From: Escherichia coli
GTDB lineage: Bacteria; Pseudomonadota; Gammaproteobacteria; Enterobacterales; Enterobacteriaceae
Assembly: GCF_003334765.1 (NCBI RefSeq)
Contig: NZ_QOWT01000111.1
Reading direction: 5' to 3' (one strand)
Length of the DNA stretch: 593 bases
Shown: positions 1 to 293 of the stretch, piece after piece
How the letters are laid out: every line of letters begins with the position of its first letter
How positions within the stretch are numbered: the first letter of the stretch is position 1
Notes under the pieces: model-generated
What the model saw: only the letters and a program-made list of their open reading frames with translations
Database searches by the model: none
Told to the model about the DNA's origin: nothing
Made by a program: the position numbers and the translations under genes

Positions 1-293
1 GATATTTCCTGGTCGAGTTGAAGTATGCGATCTTCAATCTGCTCCAGACTCTGACAATAGTGTTGAAAAGCAATCTGTTGAGATGGCTGACTAAATGATT
101 GATTAGCTAACCAGGTTCGATGTTTTCCTGTCCAGTGCTTTCCTGCATAATGTTTGTCTGTTCGCAATAGCATGCTCAGAATTCGCTGTCGGGCAACTCT
201 GCTGTCTCGTTTAGCTGCTGCACGGGCTCTGATTAGATCCCGCATAGCTTCATGAGTCAGGTCAGGGATCCAGACAGGGGTAAGTTCTCCAGC
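1..293 (-). other. Helical / coiled-coil linker region of the transposase, between the RuvC-like domain and the C-terminal Tnp (catalytic Ser) domain
   Basis: Fragment residues 101-197 are rich in Arg, Lys, Gln and Leu (RDLIRARAAAKRDSRVARQRILSMLL ... QQIAFQHYCQSLEQIEDRILQLDQEI), consistent with the helical linker of IS110-family proteins. The downstream glycine-rich helix-hairpin-helix and catalytic-Ser region of the Tnp domain is not in the window. Boundaries are approximate. Confidence 0.5.

Follow-up and report, generated by a model that had tools for sequence, protein, structure and literature searches.

Conserved arginines in the coiled-coil of the ISEc45 recombinase are plausible contacts for the DNA backbone

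Introduction

Does the basic segment that joins the two domains of an IS110-family recombinase touch nucleic acid? The question is raised by a 593 nt stretch of Escherichia coli DNA, analysed here at its full length and referred to as the window. An initial annotation had picked out an arginine- and lysine-rich helical linker between RuvC-like and Tnp domains. It proposed that this linker could support contacts with RNA or DNA.

Previously, the IS621 recombinase was divided into RuvC (residues 1–122), coiled-coil (residues 123–188) and Tnp (residues 189–326) domains. The coiled-coil comprises two helices and mediates dimerisation (PMC11208158). Indeed, dimerisation is the documented role of the coiled-coil domain (PMC11208158; bioRxiv 10.1101/2025.05.14.653916). 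In a deep mutational scan of IS622, the coiled-coil was the least mutable domain and this was attributed to dimerisation. In 2026, an engineering study of IS621 described substitutions that enhance activity. Nine of the 15 are in the coiled-coil, and V136R, H138R, D143K and H145R are among them (PMC13396178). Here, we place the basic segment within the coiled-coil of the ISEc45 recombinase. We argue that two of its arginines, R136 and R138, are plausible DNA-backbone contacts.

Results

The window encodes an internal fragment of the ISEc45 recombinase

We examined all six reading frames. The only frame open over the full 593 nt is on the minus strand; it starts at base 593 and has 197 codons with no stop. 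Open reading frames on the plus strand are short (25–33 codons only). Over all 593 nt the window matches, at 100% identity, copies carried by E. coli IncF plasmids under the annotation 'IS110-like element ISEc45 family transposase'. A total of 229 plasmid records match, mostly from Escherichia and Klebsiella. In one of these plasmids (NZ_CP020515.1) the ISEc45 gene product has 377 residues (WP_000555401.1), and window positions 1–293 correspond to residues 115–211 of the full protein. The start and stop codons are both outside the window; the gene fragment is internal. The features of the window are listed in Table 1.

Table 1. Features of the window. Residue numbers refer to the full-length ISEc45 protein.
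Feature	Residues	Window position	Strand	Basis or remark
Internal fragment of the ISEc45 IS110-family (IS1111-type) recombinase gene	15–211 of 377	3..593	-	
RuvC-like (DEDD) domain	15–122	270..593	-	Pfam PF01548, conservation, IS621 alignment
Catalytic residue	E64	444–446	-	
Catalytic residue	D102	330–332	-	
Catalytic residue	D105	321–323	-	
Coiled-coil helix 1	126–158	162..260	-	AlphaFold, heptad phase, conservation, IS621 alignment
Basic residue of helix 1	R136	228–230	-	
Basic residue of helix 1	R138	222–224	-	
R-A-R	136–138	222–230	-	
Other basic residues of helix 1	R132, K142, R143, R146, R149, R151, R158			
Basic stretch RARAAAKRDSRVARQRILSMLLRTDKHYAGKHWTGKHRTW	136–175	111–230	-	Net charge +10
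Variable tip of the coiled-coil	159–183	87..161	-	Lys/His-rich loop and short helix; AlphaFold, conservation
Short tip helix	170–177	105–128	-	AlphaFold
Coiled-coil helix 2, first 28 residues	184–211 of 184–217	3..86	-	AlphaFold

The assignment to the IS110 family made in the initial annotation was borne out. Thus, the full ISEc45 protein scored 278.9 bits against the NCBIfam model NF033542 ('IS110 family RNA-guided transposase'; cut-off 140). It also matched Pfam PF01548 (DEDD_Tnp_IS110; residues 10–158, E = 2e-15) and, outside the window, PF02371 (Transposase_20; residues 227–298, E = 8e-23). The catalytic residues D13, E64, D102 and D105 align to D11, E60, D102 and D105 of IS621. The 91 homologues show no variation at D13 or D105 and almost none at E64 or D102; D13 is 2 codons beyond the window. 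In the Tnp catalytic loop, S270 and G271 are invariant in 16 diverse family members and align to IS621 S241 and G242. With phmmer, the 197-residue fragment found no relative among PDB sequences. Relatives were reached by searching first with the whole protein and subsequently with a profile.

An Rfam scan of the window, and of the whole ISEc45 element, gave no match. Scans for promoters, terminators and repeats across the window found nothing notable. Within the coding sequence there is a 13-nt direct repeat (GCAGTAACCTGGC and GCAATAACCTGGC; window 296–308 and 376–388, plus strand, 80 nt apart), which is probably a chance match. ISEc45 is a catalogued insertion sequence, known and annotated, and the coiled-coil domain has already been described for the family. 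Nothing in the window is new in kind.

ISEc45 has an IS1111-type layout

Comparison of an occupied site (L001) with an empty site (L002) gave the boundaries of the element. ISEc45 is 1447 nt long (L001 2898–4344, with a 1-nt 'A' ambiguity). It contains the full-length tnp gene (L001:2959–4092), including the part outside the window that encodes the Ser-Gly loop of the Tnp domain. Non-coding DNA accounts for 60 nt before the gene and 252 nt after it. Sub-terminal inverted repeats are found at both ends (ATGACCTTT at L001 2905–2913 and AAAGGTCAT at 4333–4341); 7 nt lie beyond the left repeat and 3 nt beyond the right one. By the geometry set out in PMC11187229 the layout is IS1111-type, though the record carries only the label 'IS110-like'.

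IS1111 seekRNA elements, for example ISEc11, have sub-terminal repeats placed in the same way, likewise leaving 7 nt at the left end and 3 nt at the right (PMC11187229). Like ISEc45, IS1111 elements have a long non-coding region downstream of tnp, and a single preferred insertion site. Their proteins share the succession of RuvC domain, coiled-coil, variable region and C-terminal domain (PMC11187229). The TnpEc11 protein has 339 residues, compared with 377 in ISEc45, and the variable regions differ in length. ISEc45 is not among the elements tested in PMC11187229 (0 mentions). The layout differs from that of IS621, where the guide RNA is upstream of the gene. Conversely, ISEc45 has its long non-coding region downstream and, in addition, sub-terminal inverted repeats.

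The downstream non-coding region (L001 4093–4344, plus strand, 252 nt) has a predicted fold of -72.5 kcal/mol (z = -2.7) that is closed by a long stem. It contains the unpaired stretch CACGUA-GAAAGA (L001 4168–4179). The left target flank ends in the same 6 nt as the first half, CACGUA. The second half, GAAAGA, is complementary to TCTTTC, which is found in the right target flank. Judged by this match, CACGUA-GAAAGA is a candidate for the target-binding segment of a putative seekRNA.

A second plasmid copy, 96.6% identical, is beside an IS66-family element (L003 1501–3254). Flanks of about 155 nt on each side are common to both copies (L001 2740–2898 and 4345–4498; L003 1501–3254). Site-specific insertion would account for these common flanks, and so would inheritance of a single insertion event.

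The authors of the IS1111-group study warn that the mechanism may differ from that of IS110-type elements (PMC11187229). Since the layout of ISEc45 is IS1111-type, the solved IS110-type complexes are homologous to it but are not models from the same subgroup. A literature search found no paper describing the structure of an IS1111-type complex, and the text of a preprint on a Caloranaerobacter IS110 element holds no structural information.

The basic segment is part of a two-helix coiled-coil

We predicted the structure of the full ISEc45 protein using AlphaFold2 and a 91-sequence alignment (mean pLDDT 95.7, pTM 0.90). Three helices, comprising residues 126–158, 170–177 and 184–217, are placed between the RuvC-like fold and the C-terminal domain. 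The first and third have a pLDDT of about 98. The top Foldseek matches to the model are chains of the IS621 and ISCro4 synaptic complexes (E about 1e-14; 5e-12 for 8wt6_A). Target-normalised TM scores were 0.76–0.81 for IS621 chains (8wt6_A, 0.81) and 0.69–0.72 for ISCro4 chains.

The initial annotation was right to describe the segment that links the RuvC-like and Tnp domains as helical; helices 126–158 and 184–217 match the two-helix coiled-coil at residues 123–188 of IS621. However, the segment is not a single helix. Instead, the basic stretch takes in the distal two-thirds of helix 1 (residues 136–158), a loop (residues 159–169) and part of the short helix 170–177. Residues 136–158 are also within the Pfam envelope of the RuvC domain (10–158). 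In the predicted fold, the 33-residue helix 1 runs antiparallel to an acidic helix 2, and the loop and short helix form the tip of the hairpin.

The IS621 (PDB 8WT6-8WT9) and ISCro4 (PDB 9T56) recombinases share the overall architecture of ISEc45. Each has a RuvC-like DEDD domain, a two-helix coiled-coil and a Tnp domain with a catalytic Ser-Gly. Sequence identity to ISEc45 is only 20–23%. Even so, D102 and D105 carry the same numbers in IS621 and ISEc45, and P124 begins the coiled-coil in both. ISEc45 has the longer coiled-coil helices, of 33 and 34 residues. In place of the short loop of IS621 it carries a tip insert of about 25 residues. Accordingly, about 22 profile positions around residues 147–168 are unmatched in IS621 and ISCro4 in both profile and multiple alignments. 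An ISSso6-family transposase (WP_046881034.1) is a closer relative. It is 45% identical to ISEc45 over its full length, with the same helix lengths and the tip motif W-x-x-x-H-x-x-W-L, but has a tryptophan at position 138 where ISEc45 has an arginine. At the tip of the coiled-coil, the motif W168-T-x-x-H172-x-x-W175-L is a conserved feature of the ISEc45/ISSso6 clade that IS1618, IS5708 and IS621 lack.

Basic composition does not distinguish the segment

The initial annotation described the segment as strongly basic without naming the strand. The peptide, encoded within positions 1–293, is as described. Its 40 residues include 12 lysines or arginines, 2 aspartates, no glutamate and 3 histidines. 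No other 40-residue window of the ISEc45 protein (377 residues, net charge +19) is more basic. Lysine and arginine are enriched relative to the rest of the protein (binomial P = 0.001; fixed-window resampling P = 0.003). This window was picked post hoc, and a shuffle test allows for that choice. Among 20,000 shuffles of the whole protein, 17% contained a 40-residue window with a net charge of at least +10. Hence, the composition of the single sequence is unremarkable, and we rejected composition itself as a signal.

We also considered the equivalent pre-specified region of 90 homologues (34–54% identity). The mean net charge was +7.8 and the minimum was +3, compared with about +2.4 expected from composition. 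Only 37 of the 90 regions were significantly basic (P<0.05), and in 16 the region was the most basic window of the protein. That last count, like the result with shuffled sequences, is what would be expected if the basic cluster were simply a by-product of a generally basic protein. Similarly, net charge is higher in the Tnp domain (+12 in ISEc45; clade mean +14.3). We nevertheless consider this explanation very improbable. Every one of the 91 clade members has a positive region (at least +3), and R136 and R138 are near-invariant over very distant family members. The true signal is the position-specific conservation of a few arginines.

R136 and R138 are conserved across the family

Conservation was measured residue by residue. 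In the clade of 91 sequences, the share of arginine or lysine is 99% at R132, 100% at R136, 96% at R138, 93% at R149 and 75% at R158. For K142 and R151 it is 54–59%, and the position of V147 is arginine or lysine in 70% of homologues. The columns of R143, R146, K161, H162, K166, H167, K171 and R173 have only 19–45%. The aromatic residues W168 and W175 are near-invariant, and H172 is histidine in 75%.

A second set comprised 16 diverse IS110/IS1111 proteins, among them IS1618, IS5708, IS621 and members from alpha- and betaproteobacteria, Aeromonas, Lactiplantibacillus (a Firmicute) and haloarchaea. Its breadth comes from tblastn hits on plasmids, as a profile search started from the diverse alignment listed close clade members almost exclusively. 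Position 136 is arginine in 14 of the 16 proteins and position 138 in 13; position 151 is arginine or lysine in 13. R-x-R at 136/138 is the consensus over these diverse recombinases. The exceptions include IS621, which has V136-R137-H138.

The initial annotation had named poor conservation of the basic residues as evidence against a contact surface. Such poor conservation was found in the distal half of the segment but not at the proximal R136 and R138. For R149, R151 and R158, conservation largely holds.

The most conserved arginines occupy positions outside the putative salt-bridge flanks of helix 1

Analysis of heptads in the clade alignment identified a hydrophobic seam along helix 1 (residues 131, 134, 138, 141, 145, 148, 152 and 155). 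R138 is in the core register of this seam. R132 and R136 point away from it, by 121 and 172 degrees. Consequently, packing within the hairpin does not explain the invariance of R132 and R136. K142, R149, R151 and R158 are at heptad positions that flank the seam.

These arrangements bear on a purely structural explanation. The basic residues of helix 1 could pair with acidic residues of helix 2, in the hairpin or in a dimer bundle, with none contacting nucleic acid. Helix 2 is net acidic (-4 in ISEc45; clade mean -2.7), while residues 147–158 average +3.5. Acidic columns 201 and 208 of helix 2 (49% and 75% aspartate or glutamate) are on the flank matching that of K142, R149, R151 and R158. Dimerisation is, moreover, the role assigned to the coiled-coil in IS621 and IS622. 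However, conservation is strongest at arginines other than those at the salt-bridge positions, namely R132 and R136, which point away from the seam, and R138, which has a core register. In addition, arginine at 136 or 138 is tolerated, and beneficial, in IS621, where H138R raises DNA pull-down. Thus, an exclusively structural role for the whole segment is possible but doubtful.

IS621 substitutions at 136 and 138 match the natural ISEc45 residues

ISEc45 has arginine naturally at positions 136, 138 and 143, three of the positions substituted in the engineered IS621 proteins. In the IS621 study, a model put H138R close to the duplex DNA backbone, and with this substitution target DNA and donor DNA each gave more pull-down (PMC13396178). 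The gains in activity were measured in human cells, and the DNA binding assay covered H138R only (PMC13396178). Added positive charge can be a non-specific cause of such gains. Residue-level nucleic-acid contacts of IS621 were sought in the supplements to the structure and engineering papers and none came up; the IS621 contact map is published as a figure (Extended Data Fig. 4 of PMC11208158).

The comparison depends on the alignment of the two coiled-coils. Using HMMER and MAFFT, residues 124–153 of ISEc45 aligned to residues 124–153 of IS621 with no gap and an identical heptad register. Reading both sequences by eye, the hydrophobic residues 131, 134, 138, 141 and 145 of IS621 share numbers with the ISEc45 seam. 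Conversely, hhalign placed a one-residue gap after position 136, and paired ISEc45 R138 with IS621 R137 rather than H138. Because of this gap, the register of ISEc45 against IS621 is uncertain by one residue past 136.

The proposal of nucleic-acid contact is therefore narrowed rather than upheld in full. For R136 and R138, which are conserved and where arginine substitutions raise the activity of IS621, DNA contact is plausible by analogy. Residues 147–175 have no counterpart in IS621, and the lysines and histidines there are poorly conserved; for this distal part a contact is unsupported.

The tip insert as a possible binding module

Previously, Siddiquee et al. described a 'variable region' between the helices of the coiled-coil and stated its role as unknown (PMC11187229). 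The tip insert of ISEc45 corresponds to this variable region. Residues 147–183, an extension specific to the clade, might form an extra nucleic-acid-binding module for the seekRNA scaffold or for the sub-terminal inverted repeats. The extension consists of about two more helical turns, the Lys/His loop and the W-T-x-x-H-x-x-W-L mini-helix, and is an insert missing from IS621 and ISCro4. Within the clade, conservation of W168, H172 and W175 ranges from good to near-invariant, and residues 159–183 average a net charge of +2.3. ISEc45 also has the downstream non-coding region and the sub-terminal repeats of the IS1111 type; IS110-type elements lack such repeats. The domain that binds the IS ends is likewise stated to be unknown in PMC11187229, where dimer models put the variable region beside the RuvC domain of the partner.

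Several observations weigh against such a module. The basic residues of the loop are each poorly conserved (20–45% lysine or arginine). The tryptophan motif is lacking in other IS110-family proteins of the sample, IS1618 and IS5708. Finally, packing against the partner protomer explains the conserved tryptophans and histidine equally easily. We consider a dedicated binding module at the tip unlikely.

Discussion

On balance, we lean towards a divided role for the segment. It is part of the ISEc45 coiled-coil, a hairpin that would dimerise and in which the arginines at the base would bind the DNA backbone, the flanking basic residues would form salt bridges and the Lys/His loop has no assignable contact. 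By homology with IS621, dimerisation of the hairpin would keep two protomers on one complex of DNA and RNA loops. At the base of helix 1, R136 and R138, and probably R132, would bind the phosphate backbone of the adjoining duplex, the DNA flanking the crossover site. Such binding would add non-specific affinity, with specificity coming from the guide RNA. For K142, R149, R151 and R158, salt bridges to helix 2 or to the partner protomer would be more likely. For the variable loop (residues 161–173) no contact could be assigned. Put simply, two arginines probably touch DNA and the remainder of the segment is probably an ordinary dimerisation scaffold.

The ISEc45 gene is common on IncF plasmids of clinical E. 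coli and Klebsiella, and the practical value of the finding is small. Were the extension at residues 147–183 a nucleic-acid-binding module after all, it would explain how IS1111-type end recognition differs from that of IS110-type bridge recombinases. The preferred reading, of base arginines that bind the DNA backbone, bears on IS621. R-x-R is the family consensus and IS621 has V136 and H138; hence V136R and H138R are back-to-consensus changes in IS621. That they restore the R-x-R of the family supports a functional, and probably DNA-binding, role for positions 136 and 138. It also suggests that engineering of bridge recombinases could be guided by the family consensus.
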